Shown here: piece by piece, positions 4,976 to 27,802 of the stretch | How positions within the stretch are numbered: the first letter of the stretch is position 1 | Layout of the letters: each line of letters starts with the position of its first letter | DNA from: Candidatus Thalassarchaeaceae archaeon | GTDB taxonomy: Archaea > Thermoplasmatota > Poseidoniia > Poseidoniales > Thalassarchaeaceae | NCBI GenBank assembly: GCA_030747675.1 | Contig: JASLKH010000023.1 | Location: 1-27,804, forward strand | DNA: 27,804 nt | Direction of reading: 5' to 3' | Program-made: the position numbers and the translations under genes | Notes under the pieces: generated by a model | The model's input: only the letters and a program-made list of their open reading frames with translations | Databases searched by the model: none | Told to the model about the DNA's origin: nothing

Positions 4976-4976
4976 C

Positions 4977-5960: not shown

Positions 5961-6001
5961 TGTGCCCCCATGCTCTGGGTATCCACGGCCCCGTATAGCG
6001 T

Positions 6002-7917: not shown

Positions 7918-8012
7918 ATCTTATCGGCGTCGACGGGCGTTCTTAGGGGTTCTGCTTGAGGTTTTGAGCGTTATTTGACTTCATGGGGGTTCAGTAATTG
8001 CTTTGAACGGTC

Positions 8013-9596
8013 GTGCAAGCCCTATGGCCTGTGAGCGAAGCCGACTGGTCAACTATCTACCAGAAAGTGACCCAAGCGGGTCTACTTCCTGGGCGTTCGG
8101 TACGTGAACGATTGTTGGAACTTCCCGATATTGATCGCTTAGTCGATGCTGCTAAAGCAATTGGGAAAAAAGGAATTCTAGATGAAAGTGCTTTGGATGC
8201 TTTACTAATAGAGATGGAGCCTAAGCCTGCAAAGAATACCGATAAAGTAGTTGCACGAACCATTGCACCTGTTTCAACTCCTGAACCTACAACTGCTGCA
8301 AGAATTCACGACTTAGACCATTACAAATTGGCAGATTTTCCAATGAATGCAAAGGATCTCGATTCTGAAATTAATGTCCATTTTGACATCACAGGAAAGA
8401 GTGTGACTGAGGGTAAAAAAGAAGATATAAACTCCTGTTTTAGCAATCGATTAAAGCAGATCCGAAAGATGATTCTTGATGGAGGTTTACCCAACCGGCC
8501 GATTTCTGCAAATGATGCTGTTCGGCAGCGCCGACGGTTCTCAACCAGTGATGACACCTGTACTATTATTGGACTAGTAAATGGTCCTCGAACAACAAAA
8601 AATGGACACTTGATATTCAGTATTGAAGATAACTCTGGAGAATTGACTTGCTTGCTTTCACAACGTGATGAAGAAAGTGAAAATCAAGAAATTGTACATG
8701 CAGGACTGATGCCTGATGATGTTATTGGTGTCAGTGGACATTTTAGCCAGACAGGAGATCTCTTTTATTGCGAAAATCTCCATTTTCCTCCTCTTAATCA
8801 GCATCAAAGAAGGTCATCTGGAGAAGACCAAGCCGTCTCTGCCGCCTTTATTTCTGATTTGCACTTAGGTAGCAAAACATTCTTGGAATCACAATGGCAC
8901 AAAATGATTCGTTGGTTCAATGAAGACCCCCTGGCACAAACAATACGATACCTTGTGATTAGTGGAGATGGTGTTGATGGTGTTGGAATATATCCTGGAC
9001 AAGAAAAGGAATTGAATATCTCTGATCTGTTCAACCAATATTCACGCCTTGGAGAGATGTTGCAAGAACTTCCAGACTGGGTAGATGTACTATTACTCCC
9101 TGGAAATCATGATGCTGTAAGGCCCGCAGAACCGCAACCAGCATTAGACCCTGAATTACAAACTGATTACAATAATACAATTTTCGTTGGAAATCCTTGT
9201 GATTTCAGCCTACATGGAGTTAGGGTTCTTTCCTATCACGGTGTTTCAATCATGGATTTCGTATCGTCGCTTCGTACTGTAACTTTTGAGAAACCAGAAG
9301 CAGCAATGAGGGCCATGATAGACCGGCGACATCTTGCACCTTCATGGGGGGGGAAAACGCCACTTTCACCTGAACCAGAAGACCGATTAGTTATCTCAGA
9401 TATTCCCGACATATTTGTCACAGGACATGTACATGGCCATCATACTGAGAATTACAAAGGAGTTAATTTAGTCCACAGTAGCACTTGGCAGGATCAAACT
9501 AGCTACCAGAGGATGCTAGGGTTCCAACCTAAACCATGTATCTTAACAGTCGTTAACTTACACACACATGCAACTGCTTCAATCCCGTTCGTCTGA
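8013..9596 (+). CDS. polD1: Archaeal DNA polymerase D small (proofreading) subunit DP1, 527 aa
   Basis: OB-fold (IIGLVN..RTTKNGHLIFSIED.SG) followed by calcineurin-like phosphoesterase motifs FISDLHLGS, SGDGVDG, PGNHDAVR.AEPQP, YHG, RRHLAP.WGG, GHVH and TWQDQT.YQ. Confidence 0.95.
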   Translation: MQALWPVSEADWSTIYQKVTQAGLLPGRSVRERLLELPDIDRLVDAAKAIGKKGILDESALDALLIEMEPKPAKNTDKVVARTIAPVSTPEPTTAARIHDLDHYKLADFPMNAKDLDSEINVHFDITGKSVTEGKKEDINSCFSNRLKQIRKMILDGGLPNRPISANDAVRQRRRFSTSDDTCTIIGLVNGPRTTKNGHLIFSIEDNSGELTCLLSQRDEESENQEIVHAGLMPDDVIGVSGHFSQTGDLFYCENLHFPPLNQHQRRSSGEDQAVSAAFISDLHLGSKTFLESQWHKMIRWFNEDPLAQTIRYLVISGDGVDGVGIYPGQEKELNISDLFNQYSRLGEMLQELPDWVDVLLLPGNHDAVRPAEPQPALDPELQTDYNNTIFVGNPCDFSLHGVRVLSYHGVSIMDFVSSLRTVTFEKPEAAMRAMIDRRHLAPSWGGKTPLSPEPEDRLVISDIPDIFVTGHVHGHHTENYKGVNLVHSSTWQDQTSYQRMLGFQPKPCILTVVNLHTHATASIPFV

Positions 9597-12500
9597 GGTC
9601 TCATCGAATAGAGTTTCTTCGGCCCCGAAGGAAAAATAATCCAACTCATTTTTCCGAGTTCTAATAAATGCGAAAATAACTGCAATAATTACACCCAAAA
9701 GTGCAATTTGTACAACTGGATCTTCAATTAATTCACTGATACCTTTGCCATCATTTCCCTGTTGATCTTCCGAATCACCATTTGAATCAAGGTCATCTCC
9801 ATCAGAGGGGGGATTCGAAACATCTTCTTCCTGAATAATGAAATTAACATTTGAAGTGTTGGTATTCCCTGATGCATCGGAAACTGTGACAGTTAGTGTG
9901 TAATTCTCAAGGGCTACAAGGTTGGGATTGAGTGTAATTGTCATTTCATGGTTTTTACGGAGAGCAAGTGTGTCACCAAGGAAATTTTGATCTACCACTT
10001 CCACAGATTCGGTAGCATCTTCACTCGTGTACCACGTTACTCTCAAAGAGGATGAATCGATGATTTCAACTGCCAAATTCAGTATATCAGGTGGAGTGGT
10101 ATCCACTTCATTTGTTGTGTTGAAAGAAATTGTAACAAGTGATGCATCCATAACCAATATTGAGCAATTGTAAGTTGATCCAGGGTCCAAATCTGCTACT
10201 TGTATCGCATGTGATAGCGATGCTTCGCTAGTAGTAAAATTCTCACCACCACAGGTAATTGTGCCGTTGGCAGATTTTGTGGTCGACCATTCAATGATAG
10301 CAGAGGAGGATGTAACACTAGATACACTCACTCCGAATACTTGTTGTGCAACATCTGGGAGTTCTATGCCTGTTAAAACTGCAAATTGTTGAGAGTTTAC
10401 ATCATACCCCCCTAACATTGTATTTTGATCACCATCGAATACAATATCTAGCACATTTGGATCATAATCTATGCCGTCTACATCACTTGGATCTTCGCCC
10501 CCACCAAGGCGCCAGACTTTGGCATCAGCATCTACATCTCTCCATTTCCCTGGACCAAACCCATCTTGGCTTCCTGACACAATAACGAAGCGGTAATCTG
10601 GAATGTCAGACCCAATAATTGATTTAGAAACTGTGATAGTTATTGTTTTAGTAGAAACGTCACCATTTACTTCAATTCCTTTTGAACTAGTTTCTCCACT
10701 TAGTGCATTAATGGATTTCACTGCACCAGGTTCACCCGTTGCTGAAATAGCCACTTCCCATGCCCAATCCTCATGAATGATAGCATTCGCACCCTCCAAC
10801 ATATCTGTCTCACCCCACAGGTAATCTCCTTGGTCGACATAAATTTGAACAATTTGATGACTGAACCCATTAGCTAAACTCCAGTAATCAGTCATCTCTG
10901 CAAACGTTAATTCAAAACGGGCATTCCATGAGCTCTGACTGACTTTGAGTTGAGTAATGTCGAACAGTCCCTCCCCTGGTGAGAAATCACTAGCTGTGGG
11001 GTAGGTAATATCTCCCTTTCCGTTTTCATCGCCAATTGTTTCGTTAAAGTCAAGGAGAGTTACCCACTCTTCCAAATCGGGTAATATCATTTCAGCAGGT
11101 GCAGGTGGAGCGATTTCAAAATCTGTGCCGTCTCCATAATCTGTGGTATTGTGCCAAGCAGTCACGACCTTGACACGAGTAGAATATCGTGGAGCAAGGC
11201 CAATTTCAGACCAAGGGATTTGGAACTCATAAACATTGTCGGCCGCACAACCACCAAGCACCGATTGACCAGAGAAAATCCATTGCTCATTGTCTCCCAC
11301 CATCCCTCCTGCTTCAAAAATATCATACTTAGATTGCCCATCTTCCCTCAATTGGTCAAAATTAAATGATATCATGTGCTTTGCTGGAAAACCAAGTACG
11401 GAATTGCCGTAATAAGTTCTGTAATTAGTTTCAACCTCATTGAAGTTGATGGCATTTGGTTGCATGAAGTAGATGGATAAATCAGGCATTGCATCCATGT
11501 CCATCAACTCCCAATCTGCTGGTGTACTCCCCATATCGACTCTGACGTAAACATTTGATGCATCATAACCAAGATGGAATGATTCAATATCCAAAACATC
11601 ACCAGTATTTGTTGCATTGTACAAGGCTGCACCATCCCATTCACCAGGTAAAGCAATCCCATCAATCATTGGCTCAATCACGCCACCATAGGGCTCATCC
11701 GGCAAAGCAGGGTTAGTCCACAAGTCCTGTAAATAAGGAGGTAAATCGAGATTTACAGCACGATAAATATTGGAAAGATGAACTTTGAAGAGAACATCCC
11801 ACATCTCATCATACCCGCTATCTTGATCTAAGCCATACCACCAATACCAGTCACTGCCTTCAGCAATATACAGACTCTCCCATGCATCCATCAAACCGGA
11901 GTGATTGGGGTTCTCTACTTCAAAGGCAACCAAGGCTTGACGCGCCTCTACAGTGCGCTGCCAAGCAAGACTCTCCTCAGCCTCTCCTGCCCATGTCGAG
12001 AGTGTACCATCAATCCAAGAACCTGTTCCAATGACATCAATTTCTGGTAAAGTGAGATTCATCTCAAGGAACTCCCCTGGTGTTGTTGTCACCACGGTTG
12101 GATGCGTGCTCAATCTACCGAACCATTCCTCTGTAAATGGGCGGCCGTTGTCTTGGTGCTGGAACTCAGACATAAACATCCAATTTTCACCATCGAGAGC
12201 AACGGTGAGCAGATGCTCGCTGGGGTCTTTACCCTCATCCAATAGTTGTTGACGAATGTTGTCACAATATGCAAGGAAATCGGAGACTGCCGCCTCTGGG
12301 GTCATCGAACCATATTGGAAAGCGATTCGATCACTGATTACACGGTCTCTGAAGATGGTTGCAACATCCCCTACCATCCAAGGTGTCGCAAGGTTAGAAG
12401 CGACGGATACATCGATAGTTTGCCCCGACATGTCAGTCGATTCCTCAAGGTTGATTTCGTCAGTGACCATCCACTCGATACCAACATCGGCGACTGGTTG

Positions 12501-14078
12501 AACCATGTCAGGAGAGACGGATTGTTCACTGGGCCACATACCGACTGGTCGGAATCCCAATTCTTGTTCAAACAAATCCATCCCAGTCTGCAAGTGGTTA
12601 GTGACATCTTCTGGCCACGAATCTTTGTTGACTCTAATTCCATCTTCAAAGGTCCATCCATCCATCATCAATAACGGCATGATTGGATGATAGTACGGAG
12701 TTGTTGTCAGCTCAATTTGACCGCTGGTAGCCAATTCTGAGTACATTGGAAGAATGTTCGACATGTGGTTTTCTTGGGCATCTAAAACATATGTCAAGTC
12801 GGTCAAAGTATACTGCCCATTTTGCATGAATAGATCAATTAGACCTTGGTCAAGGTGGCTTGAATTGTAATCTCCTTGGACATAGGATGGGCTGAACTGA
12901 TAGAGATACCATAATACTTGCAAATCAAGGAAGTCCTGTGGACTCAAGAGGGTGTCATCCATAATAGTAGCAGGTTTCAGATTGTGCAATGTCATCCCAT
13001 GTAATTCTGAATATCGTTGACTGGAAGGGTAAACCCAACCTACTCGTGAATCATCTGAAGAGACATTGTAAATCCACCCCGAATTCCAAAAAGATTGGAA
13101 TTGCATTGTGTGTAATTCCAATGCTGTAGCATTTGGATATCCACCAGTATTCCATGAACGACGAGCAATGTCGGTATGTACATCTAATACACCATTTTCT
13201 GAATAATCAAGTAATTGCTCAATAAATGAGGGGACCAAATTGTACGTGACTTTTGTATCAGTTCCAGAAAGGATACCTGGGCTGTCGACATATTCAGTCA
13301 TTGCATGTACTCGGACCCAAGGCATCTCAACCATTCCTGTCAACTTATTTTTGTAATATGGTTGATGTTGGTGGAAAACAATTGCCAAATTGAGGGCATC
13401 GTCGACCTTCTCAAGTGGGGTGTTTGAAGTTAATACTTCTACATCAGCACTTGATTGAGAAGTTGATCGGTTTTCAATTTGGTACCAATGAGTAAAGGTT
13501 TCAGCACCATTTTCTGAAGCAGGATTTTCTTGAGGGAAGGATGTCCACACATTACCTTCATCTTGCCATTGCGACCAAGCGATCACTCCGATATTTTCAG
13601 GTGATCCGATATCGCTCCATGGAATTGAAAATTCAGTGATTTGGTTGCCAGACCAGCCAACATATGCATCGGGTATAATAGAGGATTCAACCCACGCACT
13701 TCCGTCATAAAATTGGATTGAAAAATATGATGCGTCTTCAAGAACAAATGCGAAATCTGCCGCGAATGGGAGCGTTTGAGCGAGGTTCCAATTTCTTGAA
13801 AGAGGGCTCCCCCCAAAACTTGTATTTAGATAAATAAACAAATCTGCACCCTCAGATTCACTTTCCCAATCAGTACCAGACCATGCAAAGAACAAGTTTG
13901 TGCTATTCCATGTCATTTGGAAGTTTACTGAATTAGAATCTATTGACGAAAGTGTGTCAGAGGGCCAATCTGACAAATCACCATCGACCGTAATTTCATC
14001 AGGAATTGTTGCGGTGACTAAACTAAGCCAAGCAGGTGCCAGAAAAAGAACGGCGATTAGAATTGCACCTCGACGCAT
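9579..14078 (-). CDS. apu: Secreted, C-terminally membrane-anchored GH57 amylopullulanase (DOMON-like / glucodextranase-C-like and Fn3-like modules), ~1499 aa
   Basis: Signal peptide MRRGAILIAVLFLAPAWLSLVTA. GH57 conserved regions HQHQP, ELTTTPYYHPIMPLL, GMWPSEQ (Glu), VALDGENW (Asp), AEGSDWYWW. Then GDE.G.G..TYPT..DF...LFDI, two Fn3-like units, an acidic linker and a TM helix (IALLGVIIAVIFAFI). Confidence 0.92.
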   Translation of the reverse strand: MRRGAILIAVLFLAPAWLSLVTATIPDEITVDGDLSDWPSDTLSSIDSNSVNFQMTWNSTNLFFAWSGTDWESESEGADLFIYLNTSFGGSPLSRNWNLAQTLPFAADFAFVLEDASYFSIQFYDGSAWVESSIIPDAYVGWSGNQITEFSIPWSDIGSPENIGVIAWSQWQDEGNVWTSFPQENPASENGAETFTHWYQIENRSTSQSSADVEVLTSNTPLEKVDDALNLAIVFHQHQPYYKNKLTGMVEMPWVRVHAMTEYVDSPGILSGTDTKVTYNLVPSFIEQLLDYSENGVLDVHTDIARRSWNTGGYPNATALELHTMQFQSFWNSGWIYNVSSDDSRVGWVYPSSQRYSELHGMTLHNLKPATIMDDTLLSPQDFLDLQVLWYLYQFSPSYVQGDYNSSHLDQGLIDLFMQNGQYTLTDLTYVLDAQENHMSNILPMYSELATSGQIELTTTPYYHPIMPLLMMDGWTFEDGIRVNKDSWPEDVTNHLQTGMDLFEQELGFRPVGMWPSEQSVSPDMVQPVADVGIEWMVTDEINLEESTDMSGQTIDVSVASNLATPWMVGDVATIFRDRVISDRIAFQYGSMTPEAAVSDFLAYCDNIRQQLLDEGKDPSEHLLTVALDGENWMFMSEFQHQDNGRPFTEEWFGRLSTHPTVVTTTPGEFLEMNLTLPEIDVIGTGSWIDGTLSTWAGEAEESLAWQRTVEARQALVAFEVENPNHSGLMDAWESLYIAEGSDWYWWYGLDQDSGYDEMWDVLFKVHLSNIYRAVNLDLPPYLQDLWTNPALPDEPYGGVIEPMIDGIALPGEWDGAALYNATNTGDVLDIESFHLGYDASNVYVRVDMGSTPADWELMDMDAMPDLSIYFMQPNAINFNEVETNYRTYYGNSVLGFPAKHMISFNFDQLREDGQSKYDIFEAGGMVGDNEQWIFSGQSVLGGCAADNVYEFQIPWSEIGLAPRYSTRVKVVTAWHNTTDYGDGTDFEIAPPAPAEMILPDLEEWVTLLDFNETIGDENGKGDITYPTASDFSPGEGLFDITQLKVSQSSWNARFELTFAEMTDYWSLANGFSHQIVQIYVDQGDYLWGETDMLEGANAIIHEDWAWEVAISATGEPGAVKSINALSGETSSKGIEVNGDVSTKTITITVSKSIIGSDIPDYRFVIVSGSQDGFGPGKWRDVDADAKVWRLGGGEDPSDVDGIDYDPNVLDIVFDGDQNTMLGGYDVNSQQFAVLTGIELPDVAQQVFGVSVSSVTSSSAIIEWSTTKSANGTITCGGENFTTSEASLSHAIQVADLDPGSTYNCSILVMDASLVTISFNTTNEVDTTPPDILNLAVEIIDSSSLRVTWYTSEDATESVEVVDQNFLGDTLALRKNHEMTITLNPNLVALENYTLTVTVSDASGNTNTSNVNFIIQEEDVSNPPSDGDDLDSNGDSEDQQGNDGKGISELIEDPVVQIALLGVIIAVIFAFIRTRKNELDYFSFGAEETLFDETSDERD

Positions 14079-14137
14079 GGTGCCTGCGAGGACATTCAGC
14101 ATCAAAGGTTTTCCACCCCCACGGCCGAAGACCATTC

Positions 14138-15427
14138 ATGCGCGAGTCGGGAGTGCTGTGTCACGTTGCATCTCTACCGTCTGGAAAACTTGGCCCTGAT
14201 GCATTTACATTCATTGATTTGATTGCTGAAGCAGGTGCAACAGTCTGGCAAGTCCTCCCTATTACCCCCCCTGATGAACATCGAAGCCCATACGCATCAA
14301 CAAGTGCATTTGCAGGTCATGTTGCATTGTGCGACCCTACATTTGAAGAATATCCAGATCATGAATTAATTCGTCAATGGCTAAGTGTCAATGCACATTG
14401 GGCATGGGATTGGGGGCTTTATGATGCACTCAAAGAAGCTCATGATGAAGCTCCGTGGTATGATTGGCCTGAACCACTTCGCAATCGACATCCAAAGGCT
14501 ATTGAAGAGGCCTTAGAGAAATATATGCCACAAGTCAGAGGGCGCATTATGAATCAAGTTCGATTTCAAAGAGACTGGATGATTCTCAGGCATTATGCTT
14601 CTCAAAAAGGTGTCAAATTATTTGGTGATTTACCGATTTTCGTGGCTAAAGATTCTGCTGATGTGTGGGTCCGACCGCATTTATTTCATCATGATGTTGT
14701 TGCAGGTGTACCACCTGATTATTTTTCTGAAAATGGTCAACGTTGGGGCACGATGCTCTATGACTGGGATGCACATCGTCAAGAAGAGTGGATGTGGTGG
14801 CAAATGAGAATGGCCAGATGTTGTGGATTATTTGACATCGTACGTATTGATCACTTCCGTGGTTTTGAATCTGCTTGGGCGATTCCAAATGCAGATTTGC
14901 ATGCAAAAAATGGTACATGGGTTGAAGGACCAGGGGATGAAATTTTGCAAGTATTGATGGATGTAGCAGGTGATACCATGATTGTAGCTGAAGACTTAGG
15001 CATCATTCCGGATTCAGTTATTCAACTTCGCAAGAGACACAACCTTCCTGGAATGGCAGTTCTTCATTTTGCATTTGATGATGAAAATATTGACAACCCT
15101 CATCGTCCAGAAAATATTTCTACTGACAAAATAGTGTATACTGGAACTCATGACAACGACACATCTGTAGGCTGGTGGAATGAAAGTTCTGAAATAAGGA
15201 AAGAGCGCGTATTGGAATTAGGTCTTGCAGGAGAATCTCCTTGCCAAACTCTGATTCGGATTGCCATTGAATCTTCAGCTATTTTGGCAATAATTCCATT
15301 GCAAGACTTAATTGAAGAAGACACAGGAAGTAGAATGAATACACCGGGAACCACTACTGGGAATTGGCAATGGAAATTTGATTGGACTGATTTGACCAAT
15401 GGAAATTGGAATTTATTGAAGCGTTGA
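14138..15427 (+). CDS. malQ: 4-alpha-glucanotransferase (amylomaltase, GH77), ~429 aa
   Basis: SGVLCHVASLP, WQVLPITP, SPY.STSAFAG, LFGDLPIFV..DSADVW, AGVPPDYFSENGQRWG, RIDHFRGF, IVAEDLG, YTGTHDNDT, RMNTPGT..GNW.W. No signal peptide. Confidence 0.95.
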   Translation: MRESGVLCHVASLPSGKLGPDAFTFIDLIAEAGATVWQVLPITPPDEHRSPYASTSAFAGHVALCDPTFEEYPDHELIRQWLSVNAHWAWDWGLYDALKEAHDEAPWYDWPEPLRNRHPKAIEEALEKYMPQVRGRIMNQVRFQRDWMILRHYASQKGVKLFGDLPIFVAKDSADVWVRPHLFHHDVVAGVPPDYFSENGQRWGTMLYDWDAHRQEEWMWWQMRMARCCGLFDIVRIDHFRGFESAWAIPNADLHAKNGTWVEGPGDEILQVLMDVAGDTMIVAEDLGIIPDSVIQLRKRHNLPGMAVLHFAFDDENIDNPHRPENISTDKIVYTGTHDNDTSVGWWNESSEIRKERVLELGLAGESPCQTLIRIAIESSAILAIIPLQDLIEEDTGSRMNTPGTTTGNWQWKFDWTDLTNGNWNLLKR

Positions 15428-15432
15428 TTTTC

Positions 15433-15455
15433 TGAATTTGTAATAGTCAAATTCA
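15433..15455. promoter_or_regulatory. Inverted repeat TGAATTTG-N7-CAAATTCA between malQ and glgP
   Basis: 8-bp perfect inverted repeat 5 nt after the malQ stop, seen directly. Its role (operator, terminator or RNA stabiliser) is unknown. Confidence 0.3.
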
Positions 15456-15478
15456 TAGGACTGTGGAAGCGGACCGAG

Positions 15479-20100: not shown

Positions 20101-21916
20101 TGTTTTCGAAAAGTTGGGTCTCACGTGGATTGTGATCTGCTGCATGGCGCCACAGATGTCGATTATCTGGATCTGCACCACCATACTCTCCATACTCATC
20201 ACCCTGGTAAATCATCGCTGCGCCAGGAGTTGTAAGAAGCCAAGTGAAGGCCTGTAGTGCAGCCTCGTAGGGAGTATCTGTCCCTGGTTGACCTGGAAGT
20301 CCATCCTCGACCCATTGATTCCATGCCTGCGTGGTTCCTGTATCTGCACGGCTGGTGAATCGTGGCACATCATGACTGCCGACAAAAGGTACCATGATCG
20401 CATCTTCAGCATATTGTACCTGACTTTGTGCAGTCCAGTAATCGAGGTGATGATAATCCATATCTCCTGTGGTGAAAACATTGTCTACAACTGCATGATA
20501 GAGAACAAAGTCAGCCTGGCCATCAAGAGCATTTTGGCCGATGTAACTGTTGATTGTCCCATACTCATTGGCATTGTCAGCCAAATCATGGCCAGCCCAA
20601 CCCATGGCTGTCTCACCCTTGAGATAATAGTCCGTTCCCGCAGTCTCGAATCTCTCATTAATTCGAACTGCTAAATTGGTCATGGCAAGATCATCAACAT
20701 GCTTGACTGCATCGATTCTTCCACCATCTAAGTCAAAGGTTTCAATCCACCACATAACGTCAGCAATGAATTGCTCACTGGCATTACGTACTCGCCAATT
20801 GACATCTGGCATGTATGGGCGGAACATGCAATCTAAGCGATTTTCGGTCCATCCACAATTCGCTTCCCCACAGAGACAGCCTTCATTGAACCAATCAGGG
20901 TTCTCACTGTAATATGGATGGTCTTCGTGCACATGATTGACGACAAAATCACCCATCACACGAATACCGGCATCATGTGCAGCATCAACCATTGCCTGCA
21001 AATCATGGACTGTGCCTAGTCTAGGATCAATTGACCTTGCTTCAATCGGCCAATATCCATGGTAGGCTGAGACTTCATGTTGATTATCAGAGGCCAATTC
21101 TGTTCCATTGGAAACTGTGTTGAATGGCGTTAACCAAAGCGCATTTACACCAAGATTGGAAAAATATCCAGATTCAATTTTTTGGGTAACGCCCACCAAA
21201 TCTCCACCCCTCCAATCTGCACCCTGTGTGGCTGAAGTGGAAGGAGGGTCATTGGAAAGATTCCCATTGACAAATCGATCTGTCATTACCATGTAAATGA
21301 GTGCATCATCCCAGATGAATTCAGATTGTGGTCCGCTCCAAATGGGCAATAATAAATCATCAGCAATATTGCCATCTACATCAGCCCCAGTAATATGCAG
21401 TGTGTTTTTTCCTTCAGCCAATGTTGTGATATCTAGTGTCCATGTCCATGTTGCTTCATCCCAAAGACCTGGGGCCAGAGCCAACGGAGTAGATTCGGGA
21501 GCACCGCCATCTGAACCTGCATGCCACAGAACCGTTAGGACATTGTTCTCAATTGAATGTGTAAACATCGGCTTTGATGAGTCGGGCACCCGAACAATAC
21601 TATTCTCAAAATCATCACAATAACCACGATATGGTTCAGTTGGGTCGAAAATCCAATTGTCATCGACAATTAATTTGTAACAATACATTCCTGGTTCAAT
21701 ATTTAGAGAAACGCTCCATTGGCCATTGTTTTCTGACAAATTTGTGCGTACAGCCCAATCATCCCATTCACCTGAAACTTGAACTGATGTTGCAATTCCT
21801 GACCAAGAAAAATCAGTCGGGGATTGACGTTGACGAACAGTGTCTCCGTCAGCAGAAACATGCAGGGGGATTATCGCTGCTAACAGCAGGGCAACCAGAA
21901 AAATAGCCTTACGCAT
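17123..21916 (-). CDS. Large cell-surface multidomain alpha-amylase: signal peptide - CBM48-like - GH13 - DUF1565/parallel beta-helix - GCTD repeat - Cys-rich Ig-like module - (EP)n - GCT repeat - TM, ~1597 aa
   Basis: Signal MRKAIFLVALLLAAIIPLHVSA. Glycogen-binding-like module VQVSGEWDDW...YCYKLIVDDNWIFDP. GH13 motifs IYMVMTDRFVNG, YHGYW, DFVVNH, RIDAVKH (Asp), KGET (Glu), SHDVPRF (Asp). Beta-helix region ~18000-19780. C-terminal TM FLGILVLCAGAFLLTLVI. AGGAGTGA lies 4 nt before the ATG. Confidence 0.88.
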   Translation of the reverse strand: MRKAIFLVALLLAAIIPLHVSADGDTVRQRQSPTDFSWSGIATSVQVSGEWDDWAVRTNLSENNGQWSVSLNIEPGMYCYKLIVDDNWIFDPTEPYRGYCDDFENSIVRVPDSSKPMFTHSIENNVLTVLWHAGSDGGAPESTPLALAPGLWDEATWTWTLDITTLAEGKNTLHITGADVDGNIADDLLLPIWSGPQSEFIWDDALIYMVMTDRFVNGNLSNDPPSTSATQGADWRGGDLVGVTQKIESGYFSNLGVNALWLTPFNTVSNGTELASDNQHEVSAYHGYWPIEARSIDPRLGTVHDLQAMVDAAHDAGIRVMGDFVVNHVHEDHPYYSENPDWFNEGCLCGEANCGWTENRLDCMFRPYMPDVNWRVRNASEQFIADVMWWIETFDLDGGRIDAVKHVDDLAMTNLAVRINERFETAGTDYYLKGETAMGWAGHDLADNANEYGTINSYIGQNALDGQADFVLYHAVVDNVFTTGDMDYHHLDYWTAQSQVQYAEDAIMVPFVGSHDVPRFTSRADTGTTQAWNQWVEDGLPGQPGTDTPYEAALQAFTWLLTTPGAAMIYQGDEYGEYGGADPDNRHLWRHAADHNPRETQLFENISALGQLRHESDALRRGTYQSLHSSLDTIAWSMTTESDQAVIAMNRGIAPADFDLDLQWIANDSLNEISMDEDHRFTLPAHSVAVFLLPNSDITGACILGERGDGMPLAVDASYGNDAYIGTTQCPLKTIQNAVDQLEDGGQVIVHGGNYQGSVSVSNLDQIEIKTDGSRVILDGSADVQSDLGGAWENFSTTDEGTIHRIDVGVDAWQLFVDREEMVPARWPNAKFDDGSVFNITHNWAQGTIDRDKYKDENNSWVYPYENGQIIDAGPVDGGHIGLNSSGINPIGSIAVLNVGSFKSWSRVITDYNESTGMMHYEPVSGWKTKHHRYFLEGKLELLDKAGEWFFDRENTTIYFMPPDGQNPSEMNIRVKTQPYSITCSESSEVLIEGFEFFASTFKFDNCDDSVIRNTTLLYPSTSKRSLGIAGEDTSERWITRFDRTSGSRIENCAFLYTDGGAFELYGGGNTVNNSYFYHIDWTSTDSVSLMTTVYFGGSNNVFSNNTIHNVGASSVINPGNAARIEYNDISNTGHLQTDGAVVQLMMGQQIDAMIAHNWIHDTPKYGIRMDGPMGGTNEGRNATVHHNVAWNVAGGIMVKGDYHNISHNTVFGVEPGASGDGKNNIVVIADGGNENSTFFANAADRIAAHRQDNYSDFPVPGLYSENFNGYIDAGGSVESQLIDPANQNFCPLPESAIAAIGAGAYSPDCSNPWAAGTDWDFQHPTIPLDGCTDSLADNFDSYAIVNDGSCDYEVEVEEPEPEPDGHCLILDNLTVNQTHFVTLDLVNTCDKSMHYPGVNATADHPLVTGFAGYIEWYYLIFSEATYNFSWQLSFDETIPNGTEINLTFEATILNCGEEDNWHDCPDSIIEHTFTLIWLDNETNNTEPEPEPEPEPEPEPEPEPEPEPEPEDNNTPFIEGCTNSSALNFNPGATIDNASCVYENGSEVLDDTTDSGSSSSEGLSTSQIIRVFLGILVLCAGAFLLTLVIRIRRDGNE
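17384..17458 (-). repeat. In-frame hexanucleotide tandem repeat encoding (EP)12E linker
   Basis: Plus strand shows 11 TCAGG(T/C) units plus one TCGGGC unit. On the minus strand these are 25 codons, E(PE)12. Confidence 0.95.
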
Positions 21917-21920
21917 AGTC

Positions 21921-22694
21921 TCACTCCTGAGGGAAGAGGTTGTTCGCAGTCTCAACTATTTCGTCTATATGTTTACACAGAAAACCTTTGACAAACTCAT
22001 TTGCAGGGTCATTGTAAACATCTAACGGTGCTCCGTGTTGTTGTAGAACACCTTGATCAAGGATAGCAATTCTATCTGCCAATGTCATCGCCTCAATTTG
22101 GTCATGTGTTACATACACAGTTGTGGTTCCAAGTGTATCATGTAAACGACGTATCTCTGCTCGCATTTGATGTCTGAGTTCAGCGTCGAGGTTAGACAAG
22201 GGTTCATCCATCAACAGTACCTTCGGTTGACGAACAAGTGCACGCCCCAATGCCACTCGTTGACGTTGACCGCCCGAAAGTTCCTTGGGTTTCTTTTCTA
22301 ATTCACTGACGAGGCCCAACATATTAGCAGCCTCTAGGACACGTTGGACTATTTCCTCATTGGACAAACGATCTGTTCCTTTTACCATGCGCAGACCAAA
22401 GGATAAATTCTCGGCAACAGTCATGTGCGGATAAAGTGCATACGATTGGAAAACCATGCCCAATCCACGTGCTCCAGGTGGTAAGTCATTAATCCGTGCA
22501 CCGTCTATTTGTATCTCACCTTCTGTGACATCTTCAAGTCCAGCTAGCATTCGTAAAGTAGTTGATTTACCACAACCTGATGGACCAAGTAACACAAGGA
22601 ACTCTCCTTCTTTCACTTCGAGATTCAAGCCCTTTACGGCTTCAAAACCATCATCATATCGTTTAGTCACATTTTCATAATTTACATCACCCAT
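21921..22694 (-). CDS. malK: Carbohydrate ABC transporter ATPase (MalK/MsmX family) lacking the C-terminal regulatory/TOBE domain, 257 aa
   Basis: Walker A GPSGCGKST, Q-loop VFQSYALYPH, signature LSGGQRQR, Walker B/D-loop LLMDEPLSNLD, H-loop YVTHDQIEAM. The protein ends 17 aa after FVKGF. Confidence 0.92.
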   Translation of the reverse strand: MGDVNYENVTKRYDDGFEAVKGLNLEVKEGEFLVLLGPSGCGKSTTLRMLAGLEDVTEGEIQIDGARINDLPPGARGLGMVFQSYALYPHMTVAENLSFGLRMVKGTDRLSNEEIVQRVLEAANMLGLVSELEKKPKELSGGQRQRVALGRALVRQPKVLLMDEPLSNLDAELRHQMRAEIRRLHDTLGTTTVYVTHDQIEAMTLADRIAILDQGVLQQHGAPLDVYNDPANEFVKGFLCKHIDEIVETANNLFPQE

Positions 22695-22698
22695 TTTA

Positions 22699-23952
22699 TC
22701 ACCCCTTTACACTCCCTGCACTTAATCCCTCGATGAGGAACCTCTGGAATACGATGAAGAGGATAACAACCGGGATACTAACCAGGAGGCTTGCTGCAGC
22801 AAAATCACCCCACATTGGATTCTTTGACATAATCATGCTAGCTAAGCCAACCGGTAGTGTGAACTTTTCGTTGTCCGACATAAAGGTCAATGCTAGCAAA
22901 TATTCATTCCATGCTGCTAAGAAACTGAATAACGCTGTCACAGCAACAGCGGGTAATGAAAGTGGAAGTATTACTCGACGGAAAACCTGCGCCTGACTGC
23001 ATCCATCAAGAAGAGCGGCTTCCTCAAGTTCTCGCGGAACTGTGTCAAAGAAACCTTTGAGCATCCAGACACATAAGGGCAGAGCAGTTACTGAATATGC
23101 AAGAATCAGACCCATACTAGTATTCAGCAACCCAAGTGTTTTCATAACGAGATAATATGGGACTAAAATAATAATTCCGGGAAACATTTGTACAAGCAAA
23201 AATGAGAACATTGCTTGCTCTCGGCCCCTGAACTTGAACCGGCTGAAGGCATAACCTGCTGGAATTGCCAATGCTAAGCCGAGCAAGGTTGTACCTATAC
23301 TGATGACCAATGAGTTTCGAGTCCATATCCAAAATTCTGATTCGGGGTCCAACTGATTACTAAAATGGTGCTTGAATTCCCATTGTGATAAATCCATGTC
23401 AGCGCCGAGGATATTTCCTGGAGACATTGCAACATTTAGTATCCATAAGACTGGTAGGAATATGAGCAACACTGCATGTAATAACAACGCATGTGATCCA
23501 ATTATCTCAATTCGATTTTTCACAATCTTGTTCCGGGCTAATCCGAACTCAGCCTGTACTTGTGTAATTCTTCCTTTTGCCCAACTAGAAATCTCTGGAG
23601 ATGAAATCCACCACAAAGTCAAACCTGCCGGCAGAAGAACCCAAAAAGTTGCCCACAAATCAATCAACATTCGATCTCCAGCTCCAAATTTTACAATACC
23701 AAAGATCAATGTCAAACCTGCACAACCGAGGGTTGCATCCCGCTTGTACTTGTTATCTCCATCCGGCAACACATATCTCAGGAGGAGTAAGCAAAGGGCG
23801 CAGACAAGGCTTATTTTCAAACTGAACGAATCATTTCGCAACCAATCAATAACGGCCAGAACACCAGTCACACAACTCGCGATTATAAGCCAAAGCCGGA
23901 GTGCTGAAACCTCTGCAGGGACGTACCACTGACGGGCAATATCTGAACTCAT
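22699..23952 (-). CDS. malG: Carbohydrate ABC permease (MalG-like) with ~145-aa hydrophobic N-terminal extension, 417 aa
   Basis: NSLVISIGTT..LALAIPAGYAFSRFKFRGR, LLVQMFP, EAA loop VPRELEEAALLDGCS, AWNEYLLA, TLPVGL. The start overlaps the upstream stop (ATGA at 23949-23952). Confidence 0.9.
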   Translation of the reverse strand: MSSDIARQWYVPAEVSALRLWLIIASCVTGVLAVIDWLRNDSFSLKISLVCALCLLLLRYVLPDGDNKYKRDATLGCAGLTLIFGIVKFGAGDRMLIDLWATFWVLLPAGLTLWWISSPEISSWAKGRITQVQAEFGLARNKIVKNRIEIIGSHALLLHAVLLIFLPVLWILNVAMSPGNILGADMDLSQWEFKHHFSNQLDPESEFWIWTRNSLVISIGTTLLGLALAIPAGYAFSRFKFRGREQAMFSFLLVQMFPGIIILVPYYLVMKTLGLLNTSMGLILAYSVTALPLCVWMLKGFFDTVPRELEEAALLDGCSQAQVFRRVILPLSLPAVAVTALFSFLAAWNEYLLALTFMSDNEKFTLPVGLASMIMSKNPMWGDFAAASLLVSIPVVILFIVFQRFLIEGLSAGSVKG

Positions 23953-26636
23953 GCACTGGCCTCCGTAGCATTAGTTCGTTTCATATAAATCCAAGAGAAA
24001 GCAATTAGCATCAAGAAGATGATTACTGACCATGCAGCAGCAAGACCATAGTTCCCTCCACTTGCGGGGGCAAAGGCTACGTCGTAGACATACGTAATCA
24101 AAATGTCAGTTTCTCCAGGTTGACCTTGCCCTGCCTCTGGCTTACCTCCAGTCAACAAGTAAATTACATTGAACATGTTAAATGTCCAAATAAATCCAAG
24201 TAAAGAAAGAGGTACAATTGCACTCTTCAAATTTGGTAAGGTCAAATATCTAAATTGAGCCCAAGTTCCAATACCATCGACTTCTGCAGCTTCGTACATA
24301 TCACGAGGTAATGCCTGTAATGCCCCGCTTAATGACATCATCATGAAGGGGACACCCAGCCAAATATTGACTAAAATAACCAATGTTTGGGCTTCAACCA
24401 CTCTCGAAGAATCGTCAAGGAACATGATTTGAGTTCCAAGTAAATCATTAATCAGACCTGCAGGCTCCAACATACCCTTCCAAATTAGAACTGAAATGTA
24501 GGATGGAATCGCCCAAGGAAGGAGCAATGCAGTACGGTAAGCAACTCTCCCTCTGATTCTTGAATTGTTTAACAACATAGCCAATGCCAAGCCTAAACCA
24601 ACATGGAATACAACATTAGCTACTGTCCAAATTAGAGTGAACCCTGTCACTCGAAGGAAACCTGCGGATGTAAATACATCAATGAAATTTGCAAGTCCAA
24701 CAAAAGATTCCTCACCAAGGTGGCTTTTGTTAGCATCAGTAAATGATAGCCAAATCCCGTAACCTATTGGATAGAAGGTCAGAACTGCGAGTGCCAAAAG
24801 CGCTGGCGCGACATATACATGTGCTAATCGGCTACGAGTTTTTCCTTCTCTGGCATCTAACCATCGAAGACCTGCTAACAAGATTGTCAAAGAGAGAACT
24901 ATCGATACAATAGCGAAGAGAATGGGGGACATGTCGGGAGGTGGGGGTACTTCATCTGCAACATTTGTTTCACCTCCAAATGATTGAGTTGAAAGAACTT
25001 CGTCTGAGGCAAAAGCAACAACTTCAATGAAATGTAATTTCGCAGGTATCATGCCAGTAAGGTTACAACTCCATGTTCCTGCTGAGGAAGGTATTACTGC
25101 AATACCCTGATTATTGCGGAAGGCAGGAGTTCCATCAAAAGAGCAATCATCATATGATTCTCCGAAATTTGGTTGAGATAACTCTGTAATGTCGCCAACA
25201 AAGACCGAGGAATGGGAAACATTGTCAACTTTGATTTGATAATTTGTTGCATCCAATGTCGAATTAATGGTAATGGATATTCTACGATATCCCTCAATTA
25301 AAGATGGTTGTTGTGATGATTCGATTTCATCCAGCATGTCCTCTAACTCTTCATCTGCATCTCGTAACGCATCTAGTGAATCCACATCACCATACGCTTG
25401 CTCAATAGCAACTGAGAGAGGAGTGTATACCATTGCCATGCCAAGAGTTGTTGGGGCTGGAGTACCTACTGAAGTTTGATTGAGGTATCCTGAAATTACA
25501 GGATTCGATTGGATTTCAGGATCAGAATTTAGAATTACTTTGGTCGGCATCGTGTAGGTCTCAAGTGCAAATGATTTCTGAACATCAGTGGATGAAAGAT
25601 GTAGTGCCAACTCGACGGCTGCTATTTTTTGTGTACTTTGTTTACTCACGGACCACCCTTTGTAAGTGACCAATGGGGACATCCGTAATCCTGTATCCGA
25701 GACAATTGGTAGCAATGTCTGACCTATGTCCAACCTACTTGCTTCGTATGCTGGCCAGTTCCATGGTCCATCGACAATCATTGCTGCTTTCGATTGAATA
25801 AACTGAGACTTCATTGTTTCAGCTTTGGTTCCTAAAGCAATCAATCCTAAACTTTCAGGGTCATCTGAATCCTCTAAGTTCATCAACCAATCCATTGACT
25901 CTGCCGACCCATTGGAATCTAAAGTGGGAGTTCCATTCGAATCGAATAGAGAACCACCGAAACCGGATTGGATAGGAAACCACCAATACGCATCCTTGAT
26001 GGGTATTGCTAATCCATAAACATCACCAGAAGTCAAATTTTGGGCAGCTGAAATCAAATCTGATGTAGTCCAAGATGAATCAGGGTAATCCAATCCTTCA
26101 GAATCAAATAGGCCTTTGTTGTAAATTAAAGACAAGCAATCTTGACTAGCAGGGACACCATACAGTGAATTTCCAAAACGCATTGCATTCAAGGAATCTG
26201 AATCGAATGACTCCCGTTGAGCAGGTGTCAAATGGGGACGAAGGTCTTCAAGTAAGGGATATCCGTCGACCCTGACGTCTCCAATACTCCCCAATTGATC
26301 ACTAGAAAGACGTACCAAATCGGGTGCTTGACCACCAATTGCTGCTATCTCGAATTGGCTATTCATGTTTGAATATGCCTTTTGTGTTACTTCTACAGTG
26401 ACATTAGGGTACTGTGATTCAAATGAATAAATTGCAGCCATAAAAGTTGACTCTTCCTTGCTATCTGTAGAAAAAGAATACCAAACGTCAAGGGTAATAT
26501 CTTGACTTTCTGAAGGAGAATCTGCGCTACTTTCAGACTGCTCTTCAGAACCAATGCATCCAGGAGTGAGCAAAATTAGGCCGAGGATGATGACCCCCCA
26601 ACGCCTGCTCATAGACATGAATGGGCGAGGTCGCAT
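23949..26636 (-). CDS. Fusion of maltodextrin-binding protein (MalE-like SBP family 1), Fn3-like spacer and MalF-like permease, 895 aa
   Basis: Lipobox-type signal (RRWGVIILGLILLTPG-C27). SBP motifs GGQAPDLVR, LYGVP, LIYNKGL, AAMIVDGPW. Spacer ~24950-25320. Permease with YVAPA..TFYPI, LLPWAIPSYIS, LVNIWLGVPFMM, EAA loop LPRDMYEAAEVDG and FNMFNVIYLLTGG. Single uninterrupted frame. Confidence 0.9.
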   Translation of the reverse strand: MRPRPFMSMSRRWGVIILGLILLTPGCIGSEEQSESSADSPSESQDITLDVWYSFSTDSKEESTFMAAIYSFESQYPNVTVEVTQKAYSNMNSQFEIAAIGGQAPDLVRLSSDQLGSIGDVRVDGYPLLEDLRPHLTPAQRESFDSDSLNAMRFGNSLYGVPASQDCLSLIYNKGLFDSEGLDYPDSSWTTSDLISAAQNLTSGDVYGLAIPIKDAYWWFPIQSGFGGSLFDSNGTPTLDSNGSAESMDWLMNLEDSDDPESLGLIALGTKAETMKSQFIQSKAAMIVDGPWNWPAYEASRLDIGQTLLPIVSDTGLRMSPLVTYKGWSVSKQSTQKIAAVELALHLSSTDVQKSFALETYTMPTKVILNSDPEIQSNPVISGYLNQTSVGTPAPTTLGMAMVYTPLSVAIEQAYGDVDSLDALRDADEELEDMLDEIESSQQPSLIEGYRRISITINSTLDATNYQIKVDNVSHSSVFVGDITELSQPNFGESYDDCSFDGTPAFRNNQGIAVIPSSAGTWSCNLTGMIPAKLHFIEVVAFASDEVLSTQSFGGETNVADEVPPPPDMSPILFAIVSIVLSLTILLAGLRWLDAREGKTRSRLAHVYVAPALLALAVLTFYPIGYGIWLSFTDANKSHLGEESFVGLANFIDVFTSAGFLRVTGFTLIWTVANVVFHVGLGLALAMLLNNSRIRGRVAYRTALLLPWAIPSYISVLIWKGMLEPAGLINDLLGTQIMFLDDSSRVVEAQTLVILVNIWLGVPFMMMSLSGALQALPRDMYEAAEVDGIGTWAQFRYLTLPNLKSAIVPLSLLGFIWTFNMFNVIYLLTGGKPEAGQGQPGETDILITYVYDVAFAPASGGNYGLAAAWSVIIFLMLIAFSWIYMKRTNATEASA

Positions 26637-26642
26637 ATTGAT

Positions 26643-27329
26643 TCATTCCCCATCTTTGATGGGGAATGGTATATCTGGGAATATATGTGGCCAAAGCGAA
26701 CGACAATCTTTTTCTCGAACATGGGGGACGCCCGCATCTTCAAATCCAGTAATTGCACTTTCTTTCAAACCATTGAATCCAATGAAATGACTTCCGGGAA
26801 TTTGCATGGATAAATCAGTGACATTGTCACCGATGCTGACAATTTCAGAGGGTGAGAACTGGTTAATTCGAGCAAGTTTAGACACCATTTCACCCTTTCC
26901 ATGAGCAGGGACTCTCACAACACCATCATCTAGCAAAAATCCATCTTCATCATATTGAAATCCATTTGAAACCCAATCATCGACTTTGAGGAGTTTGGCA
27001 ATAGAACCAATCAGAAGATCTACTCCTGCACTCACAATAGCAACATACACGCCTTGTTCCTTTAGTGCCTCAACCAAATCTCTAGCCCCATCCATCAAAG
27101 TAACGCCTTGATAGCAACGCATCAATTCATCACGATGAATAGTTGATTGTACTGATTTCCATTTCCCTATATCATCAGCCATGAATTCTTTATCTGTAAG
27201 CTCACCACGGATAAATCGATCAAGCATTTCACCACTATCGGTGCCAAAGAAATCATGAATTATTCTCCATGATGATACGGTGTCAATTAGAACGCCATCA
27301 CAATCAAAACAAACAGCCTTGATTGCCAT
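26643..27329 (-). CDS. HAD-superfamily phosphatase (subfamily IB, phosphoserine-phosphatase-like), 228 aa
   Basis: Motif I FDCDGVLID, motif II VSAG, motif III K (HGKG), motif IV SIGDNVTD. GGTGA lies 4 nt before the ATG, and the stop is 6 nt before the next gene's start. Confidence 0.88.
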   Translation of the reverse strand: MAIKAVCFDCDGVLIDTVSSWRIIHDFFGTDSGEMLDRFIRGELTDKEFMADDIGKWKSVQSTIHRDELMRCYQGVTLMDGARDLVEALKEQGVYVAIVSAGVDLLIGSIAKLLKVDDWVSNGFQYDEDGFLLDDGVVRVPAHGKGEMVSKLARINQFSPSEIVSIGDNVTDLSMQIPGSHFIGFNGLKESAITGFEDAGVPHVREKDCRSLWPHIFPDIPFPIKDGE

Positions 27330-27333
27330 GAAA

Positions 27334-27338
27334 TCACC
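27334..27338 (-). promoter_or_regulatory. GGTGA Shine-Dalgarno-like site (representative; similar sites at 22699-22705, 21921-21928, 4981-4985)
   Basis: GGTGA or GGAGTGA found 4-5 nt upstream of four ATG starts. In malK and the amylase the TGA is also the upstream gene's stop codon. Confidence 0.65.
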
Positions 27339-27363
27339 AAAATATAGGGAAAGACGGGAGATT

Positions 27364-27439
27364 AATCCCCCTTCCTGCCGAAGCAGGAAGGGGGACTCAA
27401 GCGGGCACTTGCGCGCCCACTTGCCACCCTTTAGGTGGC
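27364..27439 (-). ncRNA. Candidate structured RNA element: three stacked hairpins with GCAA (GNRA) and C(UUCG)G tetraloops
   Basis: Minus strand: GCCACC-UAAAG-GGUGGC, AA, GUGGGCGC-GCAA-GUGCCCGC, UUG, AGUCCCCCUUCCUGC-UUCG-GCAGGAAGGGGGAUU. The G-U wobbles pair only on the minus strand. No family recognised. Confidence 0.55.
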
Positions 27440-27460
27440 CCCTGTGGTTATCTTAACGCC

Positions 27461-27802
27461 TCAGAATTGCGGCGAAATTGATGGTGGGTTGAACGAAGCA
27501 GTCCATGTCATCAATGTATACGAATTCCCACCAGCAGGATTGTACGATAGTATAATCGTAGCATCCTCAATGACTTCATTGCCATTTGCTGGATCTGTCA
27601 TTCGAATCTGAATGAAGTCGTTCGCACCGAATCCGGTGGAACAATCGACATTACAGTTGATTGAATCCTTGAACGTCACCAATTGATCGCTGTTAGACGG
27701 AACGAATCCGTATACACCAGCTGGGTTTGCTAGGCTAGTAGTATGTGTCTGTGCGACACCAGTGGAGTTCAACCACTGTACCTTCACAAACACAGCCTGT
27801 GT
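27461..27802 (-). CDS. C-terminal part of an uncharacterised protein (5' truncated by window edge); possibly pilin/archaellin-like or another exported beta-rich protein
   Basis: The frame stays open to the window end (..TQAVFVKVQW..). Composition is T/S/N/G-rich with a CxxxC pair. The pilin guess is weak because the diagnostic N-terminus is outside the window. Confidence 0.5.
   Translation of the reverse strand, partial: TQAVFVKVQWLNSTGVAQTHTTSLANPAGVYGFVPSNSDQLVTFKDSINCNVDCSTGFGANDFIQIRMTDPANGNEVIEDATIILSYNPAGGNSYTLMTWTASFNPPSISPQF

Follow-up and report, generated by a model that had tools for sequence, protein, structure and literature searches.

We analysed a window of 27,804 bp, which is the whole of contig JASLKH010000023.1 from a Candidatus Thalassarchaeaceae archaeon (order Poseidoniales, Marine Group II, MGII; assembly GCA_030747675.1). 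This contig is one of 100 in a 1.68-Mb genome bin that is 78% complete. Eight contiguous genes occupy positions 9579-27329 and together look like a locus for the capture and breakdown of alpha-glucans. An earlier note, made from the sequence alone, had placed eight genes of named families here, and all eight open reading frames (ORFs) were recovered at these positions with virtually no DNA left between them (Table 1). Families were called with Pfam and NCBIfam models, to which comparisons with solved structures, hydropathy scans and motif searches were added; the calls agree with the families named before. More specifically, the locus encodes two large hydrolases of glycoside hydrolase (GH) families 57 and 13, an ATP-binding cassette (ABC) importer made of a substrate-binding protein (SBP) fused to a MalF-like permease, a MalG-like permease and a MalK-like ATPase, a GH77 glucanotransferase (MalQ), an alpha-glucan phosphorylase of glycosyltransferase family 35 (GT35) and a HAD-type phosphatase. 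No further credible ORF lies inside the locus, the other ORFs of at least 100 aa being antisense to or out of frame within these eight genes. For GH57, MalQ and GH13 the true starts are probably shorter than the longest ORFs, at the internal methionines given in Table 1.

Table 1. Features of the alpha-glucan locus and its borders in the 27,804-bp window.
Feature	Position	Strand	Size	Remarks
HAD-IB phosphatase	26643..27329	-	228 aa	first gene of the minus-strand array
SBP-MalF fusion	23949..26636	-	895 aa	SBP_bac_1 and MalF-like permease in a single frame
MalG-like permease	22699..23952	-	417 aa	MalG model, BPD_transp_1 type
ABC ATPase, MalK/UgpC-like	21921..22694	-	257 aa	
Surface alpha-amylase, GH13 (predicted)	ORF 17123-21955, probable 17123..21916	-	1610-aa ORF, 1597 aa from M14	
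Beta-helix insert within the GH13 protein	17846..19798	-	~650 aa	aa ~720-1370
GT35 alpha-glucan phosphorylase	15479..17122	+	547 aa	TIGR02094
GH77 MalQ	ORF 14036-15427, probable 14138..15427	+	463-aa ORF, ~429 aa from M35	
GH57 amylopullulanase-type enzyme	ORF 9579-14135, probable 9579..14078	-	1518-aa ORF, 1499 aa from M20	
Intergenic region upstream of HAD	27330..27460	-	131 nt	GC-rich hairpin and TATA-like ctatatttt
DNA polymerase II small subunit DP1	8013-9596			gene beyond the GH57 end of the locus

The GH57 protein, recorded in a form of 1499 aa, matches Pfam Glyco_hydro_57 with 159.5 bits against a cut-off of 21.2 (1.5e-46), and its catalytic domain aligns with the solved amylopullulanase of Aquifex aeolicus (AaApu; 5.6e-49). 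All five GH57 regions are present (HQHQP, GQIEL..PYYHP, WPSEQS, LDGENW and AEGSDWYWW, as compared to HMHQP, GKGSV, WPPEAS, DGENCW and AEGSDW in AaApu). Both the catalytic Glu (nucleophile) and the Asp (acid/base) are retained; in the Aquifex enzyme these residues are E256 and D352, according to a passage of PMC12106739. The order of parts is a Sec signal, an N-terminal domain resembling a binding module (aa ~40-230), the GH57 catalytic domain, a Glucodextran_C module (aa 1029-1255, 5.1e-50), fn3/Ig-like stretches scoring below the Pfam cut-offs, an acidic linker, a C-terminal membrane helix and a cytoplasmic tail. No NCBIfam family matched this protein. The N-terminal module has no Pfam match, and all of its protein-atlas leads stay below 0.9 (Glucodextran_C-like, CBM9-like). 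The homologues listed for the GH57 body are close relatives, those with lineage names belonging to MGII or Euryarchaeota, and they are uninformative on an outgroup or on gene transfer.

In the GH13 protein the Pfam Alpha-amylase catalytic domain reaches 130.8 bits against a cut-off of 22, and an AMPK1_CBM (CBM48-type) module is present as well. Numbered along the 1610-aa ORF, a Sec signal is followed by the CBM48-type module (aa 46-123), the GH13 catalytic domain (aa 223-593), the beta-helix insert, a Cys-rich module with PE-repeat linkers and a C-terminal helix (aa 1584-1602). Pattern search finds GH13 regions I-IV as DFVVNH, GGRIDAVKH, KGE and FVGSHD, and the Asp/Glu/Asp set is complete. The solved proteins closest to the catalytic domain are the Anoxybacillus/Geobacillus alpha-amylases (5a2b, 4e2o; 7e-41), and cyclodextrin glucanotransferases are also among them. 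Membrane segments were sought by a Kyte-Doolittle scan with a 19-residue window, which showed in both hydrolases a signal-like segment at the N-terminus and a hydrophobic one at the C-terminus, as the earlier note had claimed. In the GH57 protein the C-terminal window lies at aa 1466-1484 and overlaps a hydrophobic stretch next to it in the translation. Both proteins are thus predicted to be exported by Sec and anchored in the membrane by a single C-terminal helix.

The genes for all parts of a CUT1 importer lie side by side: the binding protein, a pair of BPD_transp_1 permeases and a single ABC ATPase. In the SBP-MalF fusion Pfam finds SBP_bac_1 (1.5e-23) and BPD_transp_1, and the NCBIfam MalF model is matched over its positions 262-517 (1.4e-57). 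The protein begins with a lipobox-like signal (LLTPGC) and continues with the SBP (aa ~46-440), a domain of ~120 aa to which Pfam gives no match, a linker helix (aa 572-590), a short basic loop and the MalF core. Five further segments of the core rise above the hydropathy threshold versus six expected for MalF. This order is consistent with a topology in which the SBP would lie outside and the linker helix would lead to a cytoplasmic loop and to the N-terminus of the MalF core inside, as such a fusion demands. The best solved match of the SBP is 6ffl_A (1.8e-33), a chain of 388 aa that was deposited under the name 'maltose/maltodextrin transport permease homologue' and probably comes from Bdellovibrio. 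In the MalG-like permease the MalG model (1e-57) covers aa 145-417, and the six-helix core is preceded by four extra N-terminal membrane helices (aa 17-113), an extension for which the only Pfam match is one at 0.082. The MalK-like ATPase matches positions 1-236 of 357 in the UgpC model and 1-235 of 369 in the MalK model (7.3e-102). Because only the first 235 of the 369 MalK positions are matched, the C-terminal regulatory (TOBE-like) domain is absent. All four components score below the NCBIfam equivalog cut-offs (MalF 195.7 against 392, MalG 196 against 261, MalK 340.9 against 568 and MalE 72.2 against 291); by these scores the importer proteins are related to MalE/F/G/K but are not equivalogs of them.

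MalQ is recognised by PF02446 (422.3 bits against 25; 3.3e-126) and by TIGR00217 (241.3 bits against 205.65), and 31 of its 46 relatives align from residue 35-39. The phosphorylase reaches 507.4 bits with TIGR02094 (cut-off 191.7). Against the Thermococcales MalP equivalog NF041129 it scores 413.8 bits, under the cut-off of 1500, over positions 98-684 of 816, as a shorter relative of that family. The stretch EASGTSGMK at aa 443 is the pyridoxal-phosphate lysine motif, and the solved relatives 20yr/9l6i ('alpha-glucan family phosphorylases') align at 9e-92. Hydropathy gives no signal-like or anchor segment in MalQ, the phosphorylase or MalK, and MalQ and the phosphorylase are predicted to be cytosolic. 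The HAD protein matches the Pfam family Hydrolase/HAD, TIGR01488 (86 bits against 45) and, below its cut-off, TIGR01491 (137.6 against 151.9 bits). Its best model is phosphoserine-phosphatase-like; it has an N-terminal DxDG motif, no signal peptide and one internal segment above the hydropathy threshold (aa 96-114). Two genes of the PGM/PMM family lie elsewhere in the source genome.

The genes for HAD, SBP-MalF, MalG, MalK and GH13 likely form one operon with a near-leaderless first gene, since they are tightly packed (gaps of 6, -4, 4 and ~4 nt, MalG overlapping SBP-MalF by 4 nt) and a 131-nt intergenic region with a hairpin and a TATA-like element lies near the HAD start. On inspection, the element ctatatttt is found ~15-22 nt ahead of the HAD ATG. 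The intergenic region is the probable promoter of this five-gene array, and its GC-rich hairpin is the probable terminator of the giant gene upstream. malQ and the phosphorylase gene probably make up a second transcription unit and GH57 a third one. GH57 and malQ are divergent, with starts 2 nt apart for the longest ORFs and 59 nt apart for the probable starts. At the other end of the malQ unit, the stop codons of the phosphorylase gene (plus strand) and the GH13 gene (minus strand) abut directly at 17122/17123, which leaves no space for a terminator between these convergent genes. The locus contains no regulator gene, either in the ORF list or in the Pfam scan of the eight proteins, in agreement with the earlier note.

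We conclude that Poseidoniales use this locus for the capture and catabolism of alpha-glucans (starch, glycogen, maltodextrin), a reading to which we give a probability of about 85%. In this scheme, the Sec signals of the GH57 and GH13 hydrolases would direct their export, and the C-terminal helices would keep both enzymes attached to the outside of the membrane. GH57 and the GH13 enzyme, the latter with its glycogen-binding CBM48-type module, together would cut the alpha-1,4 and alpha-1,6 bonds of glucans, giving maltodextrins. The CUT1 importer would take up the dextrins, its receptor being tethered to the channel by fusion through one extra membrane helix. In the cytosol, GH77 MalQ would disproportionate the dextrins and release glucose, and the GT35 phosphorylase would release glucose-1-phosphate, which either of the two PGM/PMM-family genes could turn into glucose-6-phosphate. 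In the source genome and a few others, the GH13 enzyme bears an additional GH141-like beta-helix module. The same route, from surface depolymerisation through ABC uptake to cytosolic MalQ and phosphorylase, had been proposed in the earlier note, and it is in keeping with intact catalytic motifs in GH57, GH13 and the phosphorylase, with the export and anchor segments of the two hydrolases and with a complete importer.

Several points weigh against this scheme. The GH57 enzyme could be a plain amylase and not an amylopullulanase, as dual specificity is not readable from the sequence. The imported sugar is predicted to be maltodextrin; the SBP also matches the model of a galacto-oligosaccharide binding protein (8.6e-35, far under its cut-off), and MalK-type ATPases of this family serve various sugar importers. 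The gap between GH57 and malQ (14078-14140) is not AT-rich, and inspection of its sequence reveals no obvious TATA box. The HAD gene is only partly linked to the locus, being present in 37 of the 60 related loci that have room for it. Its membership, assumed before, is put in doubt by this partial linkage and by the likeness to phosphoserine phosphatases. Finally, a search for three glucokinase families (ROK, PF02685 and ADP-dependent) gave no match in the source genome, which is 78% complete; this leaves the glucose expected from MalQ without a kinase of these families.

It is improbable that the locus serves mainly the turnover of the cell's own storage glycogen, with MalQ and phosphorylase mobilising the polymer and the transporter recapturing leaked sugar. 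MalQ and GT35 phosphorylase are the enzymes that bacteria use in glycogen and maltodextrin turnover, and neither carries a signal peptide here. However, both hydrolases have export signals and C-terminal anchors. Moreover, the 78%-complete source genome has one GH57 and one GH13 match, with no second one as a branching enzyme, and of glycogen synthase only the N-terminal domain is matched, partially and with 28 bits, in a 433-aa frame.

The conservation of the alpha-glucan locus was studied with 214 SBP-MalF relatives from a genome collection, of which 80 loci were kept and compared with the window proteins by tblastn. In 43 of the 80 loci, the seven genes other than HAD are arranged and oriented as in the window; most of the remaining 37 loci are truncated by the end of a contig. 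Where the contig has room, MalG is found in 72/72 loci, MalK in 67/67, GH13 in 55/55, the phosphorylase and MalQ each in 44/44 and GH57 in 43/44. This layout is far beyond chance, as dozens of genomes from separate assemblies share it. Loci whose titles give a lineage below the phylum belong to Poseidoniales, Poseidoniaceae, Poseidonia, Thalassarchaeaceae or MGII, with the exceptions of one Thermoplasmata and one Verrucomicrobiales; several of the 80 bear phylum-level archaeal names only. The closest relatives of the locus proteins are titled Thalassarchaeum, MGIIb-P or Thalassarchaeaceae.

The earlier note had named a chimeric or mis-binned contig at the junction between DP1 and GH57 as the finding that would overturn its claim. 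In all 11 related loci taken around GH57 (L004-L014, from three genera) DP1 adjoins GH57, and the GC content is even along the contig (0.41-0.48). Because the junction and the gene order recur and the GC content is even, a chimera or mis-binning is excluded. We give a negligible probability to an artefact of assembly or binning, or a very recent uptake of foreign DNA, at this junction, even if the window is one contig of 27.8 kb out of 100 in a 78%-complete bin and a related locus comes from a bin titled Verrucomicrobiales. Besides the conserved junction and the even GC content of the contig, the gene order shared by 43 loci from many independent assemblies speaks against these explanations, as does the full-length fusion, which occurs in 7 of 21 sampled genomes of one family of the order and in 20 of 42 of the other. 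The Verrucomicrobiales case (L079, NZEQ01000026.1, titled 'Verrucomicrobiales bacterium') contains the complete archaeal locus with unchanged gene order, at 51-78% protein identity for the seven genes, and has HAD and the giant-protein end upstream; this contig is probably mis-binned in the public genome. We conclude that the alpha-glucan locus is vertically inherited across both families of Poseidoniales.

Within the family, a sample of 151 genomes from 13 genera contains GH57 relatives in 65 genomes and 8 genera. Among these matches 61 are strong, and four genomes (G006, G053, G111 and G133) match by the N-terminal module only, inside giant ORFs. In the five remaining genera no GH57 match was found among 15, 15, 13, 14 and 14 genomes, respectively. 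The pattern of 8 out of 13 genera agrees with published statements on carbohydrate use in MGII.

Most of the unusual architectures of the locus proteins are order-wide. The SBP-MalF fusion is one continuous match in 72 of the 80 related loci, the MalG extension is kept in 78/78, the MalK is short (255-265 aa) in 66/67, the exception having 354 aa, and the short form of the phosphorylase occurs in 47/49. The beta-helix insert is rare. The claim that most components have a non-standard architecture stands for the fusion, the MalG extension, the short MalK and the short phosphorylase; it does not stand for GH57, which has the GH57 and Glucodextran_C domains of the Thermococcales enzyme. In a phylum sample of 301 genomes, full-length fused SBP-MalF was found only in the two families of the order, at the frequencies given above and besides the source genome. 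Outside the order, 13 genomes match SBP-MalF by halves only, and three of them were inspected (G314, G228 and G302). In G314 and G228, SBP and permease are in separate ORFs. In G302, from another family of the phylum, a 1630-aa ORF (L108, C50:1305-6197, minus strand) contains two BPD_transp_1 stretches and an Ig domain, and looks like a permease fusion of MalF-MalG type. SBP (642 aa) and MalF (523 aa) are also separate ORFs in genome G013 (genus g13) of the same family as the source genome. This may be the unfused ancestral form or a secondary split. The G013 locus (L110, contig C36) is divergent, its GH57 being 41% identical and its SBP carrying a MopE-like metal-binding motif.

The beta-helix insert of the GH13 protein (aa ~720-1370) was aligned in only two of the 64 related loci with a GH13 match, L046 (78% identity over GH13 residues 1-1387) and L049 (72% over 1-1366). 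The other loci have the C-terminal module immediately behind the catalytic part, which extends to ~aa 706. In the family sample the insert segment is found in 24 of the 151 genomes at E <=1e-20, and the fused GH13-beta-helix form only in G131, of the same genus, and G142, of genus g6 (80-83% identity, ORFs of 1427-1550 aa). The remaining genomes have homologues of the insert at 41-55% identity in other ORFs, including genera without the glucan locus. Among 1.84 billion representative sequences there are 2833 homologues (356 at <=1e-30 and 1341 at <=1e-10), most of them N-terminal domains of 700-1300-aa proteins. Scanning of 26 homologues gave six with a type IX secretion tail and eight with a GH141_M match, two of the latter above the cut-off. 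The closest representative, P0004 (1702 aa), is an odd combination of the module (825-1466) with a GH141_M match near 150 and a C-terminal Cu/Zn superoxide dismutase domain. We read the insert as a rare, sporadic addition to GH13, with stand-alone genes of the same module family within the order as its probable source.

An AlphaFold2 model of the insert, built with 54 sequences, has a mean predicted local distance difference test score (pLDDT) of 89.1. Its best fold match is the GH141 enzyme BT_1002 (E 4.7e-16, template modelling (TM) score 0.43-0.54, 11-14% identity), followed by the GH120 xylosidase XylC (1.2e-11). The likeness to GH141 holds at the level of fold only, since GH141_M scores 25.3 bits against a cut-off of 27. 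According to this model the insert is probably a GH141-like right-handed parallel beta-helix and a second glycan-active module. Invariant and near-invariant Glu, Asp, Arg and Asn columns in the alignment suggest an active or binding site.

These properties bear on the possibility that the target of the locus is a mixed or decorated algal glycan, with the beta-helix module, the GH57 N-terminal module and the giant surface protein as determinants of specificity. The fold of the insert resembles that of GH141 and GH120 enzymes, whose substrates are glycans containing fucose or xylose, and its acidic and basic columns are conserved across 54 sequences. Further matches to the GH57 N-terminal module (aa 31-217) lie within ORFs of ~4500-4700 aa of the same genomes, and a giant ORF of this type is found next to the locus. 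In addition, a passage of Tully 2019 names pectin beside starch and glycogen (PMC6336850). Nevertheless, the insert is missing from 62 of the 64 loci with a GH13 match and so cannot define the conserved function of the locus. CBM48, GH13, GH57, GH77, GT35 and the MalEFGK-type parts all indicate alpha-glucans, and we regard a decorated glycan as an unlikely target.

The locus can be compared with several known systems. In Thermococcales (Pyrococcus and Thermococcus), mdxE-mdxF-mdxG, an amylopullulanase gene and mdxK are clustered, MalP and the glucanotransferase being encoded elsewhere. As in this maltodextrin system, an archaeal CUT1 importer is here clustered with a large GH57 amylopullulanase-type enzyme that is predicted to be membrane-anchored; GH57 and Glucodextran_C domains and the amylopullulanase motif set are shared, and the phosphorylase aligns with the MalP model. 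The differences are numerous. The present host is mesophilic and planktonic, and a second predicted surface enzyme, CBM48-GH13, is encoded in the locus. The glucanotransferase is of family GH77 and not GH57, and MalQ and phosphorylase are inside the locus. SBP is fused to MalF, MalG has four extra helices, MalK is without the regulatory domain and the phosphorylase has 547 aa. There is no TrmB-type regulator in the locus either, the only clear TrmB-type match being on another contig.

A MalE-MalF fused maltose/maltodextrin ABC transporter is reportedly present in Bdellovibrio bacteriovorus. As in that protein, the binding protein of the Poseidoniales fusion stands in frame at the N-terminus of MalF and is joined to it by a membrane helix. 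The archaeal host differs in having no outer membrane, and the fusion differs by the extra ~120-aa domain between SBP and linker helix. With the mal regulon of E. coli (MalEFGK2, MalQ, MalP, MalS) the locus would share an extracytoplasmic amylase, SBP-dependent uptake and the conversion by MalQ and phosphorylase to glucose and glucose-1-phosphate. Unlike the E. coli system, it has no MalT-type regulator and no outer-membrane porin, its hydrolases are giants with predicted membrane anchors, its matches to the Mal models stay below the equivalog cut-offs, and its MalK is without the domain through which the transporter of E. coli is coupled to regulation. The likeness to the Sus-type polysaccharide utilisation loci of Bacteroidota lies in clustering only, putative surface glycan-cutting enzymes being encoded together with a dedicated importer. 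In contrast to those loci, there is no periplasm to sequester products and no hybrid regulator, and the Pfam matches of the eight proteins include no SusC/TonB-receptor or SusD family; the locus is therefore not of the Bacteroidota type. The labels 'selfish' and 'PUL-like' used in the earlier note claim more than a sequence can tell.

One can speculate that the importer (receptor-channel fusion, four-helix MalG domain and MalK without the regulatory domain) is a tethered design for a cell without a periplasm, and that in a few genomes of two genera the amylase became two-headed by capture of a beta-helix which strips a second, non-glucan glycan. We consider this combined proposal doubtful. If it is true, the two-headed amylase could strip fucose- or xylose-containing algal material from the same particle, and the 80-83% identity of the module between two genera would mark recombination between MGII lineages.

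Beyond the borders of the alpha-glucan locus, positions 1-9596 of the window hold housekeeping genes: a PolyA_pol/CCA-adding-type nucleotidyltransferase, glycine cleavage H protein, acyl-CoA dehydrogenase, S51 peptidase, a HEAT-repeat protein, PCMT methyltransferase, CinA and DP1. Upstream of HAD, a minus-strand ORF at 27461-27802, cut by the contig end, was considered as a regulator and ruled out; it is the C-terminal end of a giant surface protein. A homologue of this protein spans 2987 aa in locus L032 (87-9050), where it is itself cut by the end of the locus. The giant protein has beta-helix-like repeats and, near the C-terminus, a match to Pilin_N, the archaeal type IV pilin N-terminal domain (5.1e-08). 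In several related loci, weak GH57 matches are seen upstream of the giant-protein neighbour.

The novelty of the system as put forward in the earlier note is weakened by the literature. Passages of Orellana et al. 2019 report GH13, GH57 and GH77 for members of MGIIa genus M (PMC6864105), statements in PMC6461757 attribute a maltose transporter with its glucanotransferase to the order, and parts of PMC6336850 report starch and glycogen hydrolases for MGIIa and basal MGIIb. No description of the gene order and protein architectures of the locus was found in the literature searched, supplements of survey papers lying outside that search. The enzyme families are already on record for MGII; what is new descriptively is the seven-gene layout, the tethered importer, the short MalK, the short phosphorylase and the GH13-beta-helix chimera. 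These protein designs are of interest to specialists in transporters and carbohydrate-active enzymes, and they extend known themes without opening a new one.

In the surface ocean, Marine Group II belongs to the most abundant archaea; the group has no cultured members and is mostly portrayed as living on protein and lipids. Under the reading given above, the locus represents a conserved and readable route to alpha-glucans, which may be storage sugars of algae and cyanobacteria or glycogen freed by lysis and grazing. It supplies targets for gauging the flow of storage-glucan carbon through archaea, namely two putative secreted enzymes, a binding domain and marker genes for metatranscriptomes. 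Its patchy spread, with eight of 13 genera having it and five in which it was not found, is in line with the published view that MGII lineages are set apart by their use of carbohydrates.

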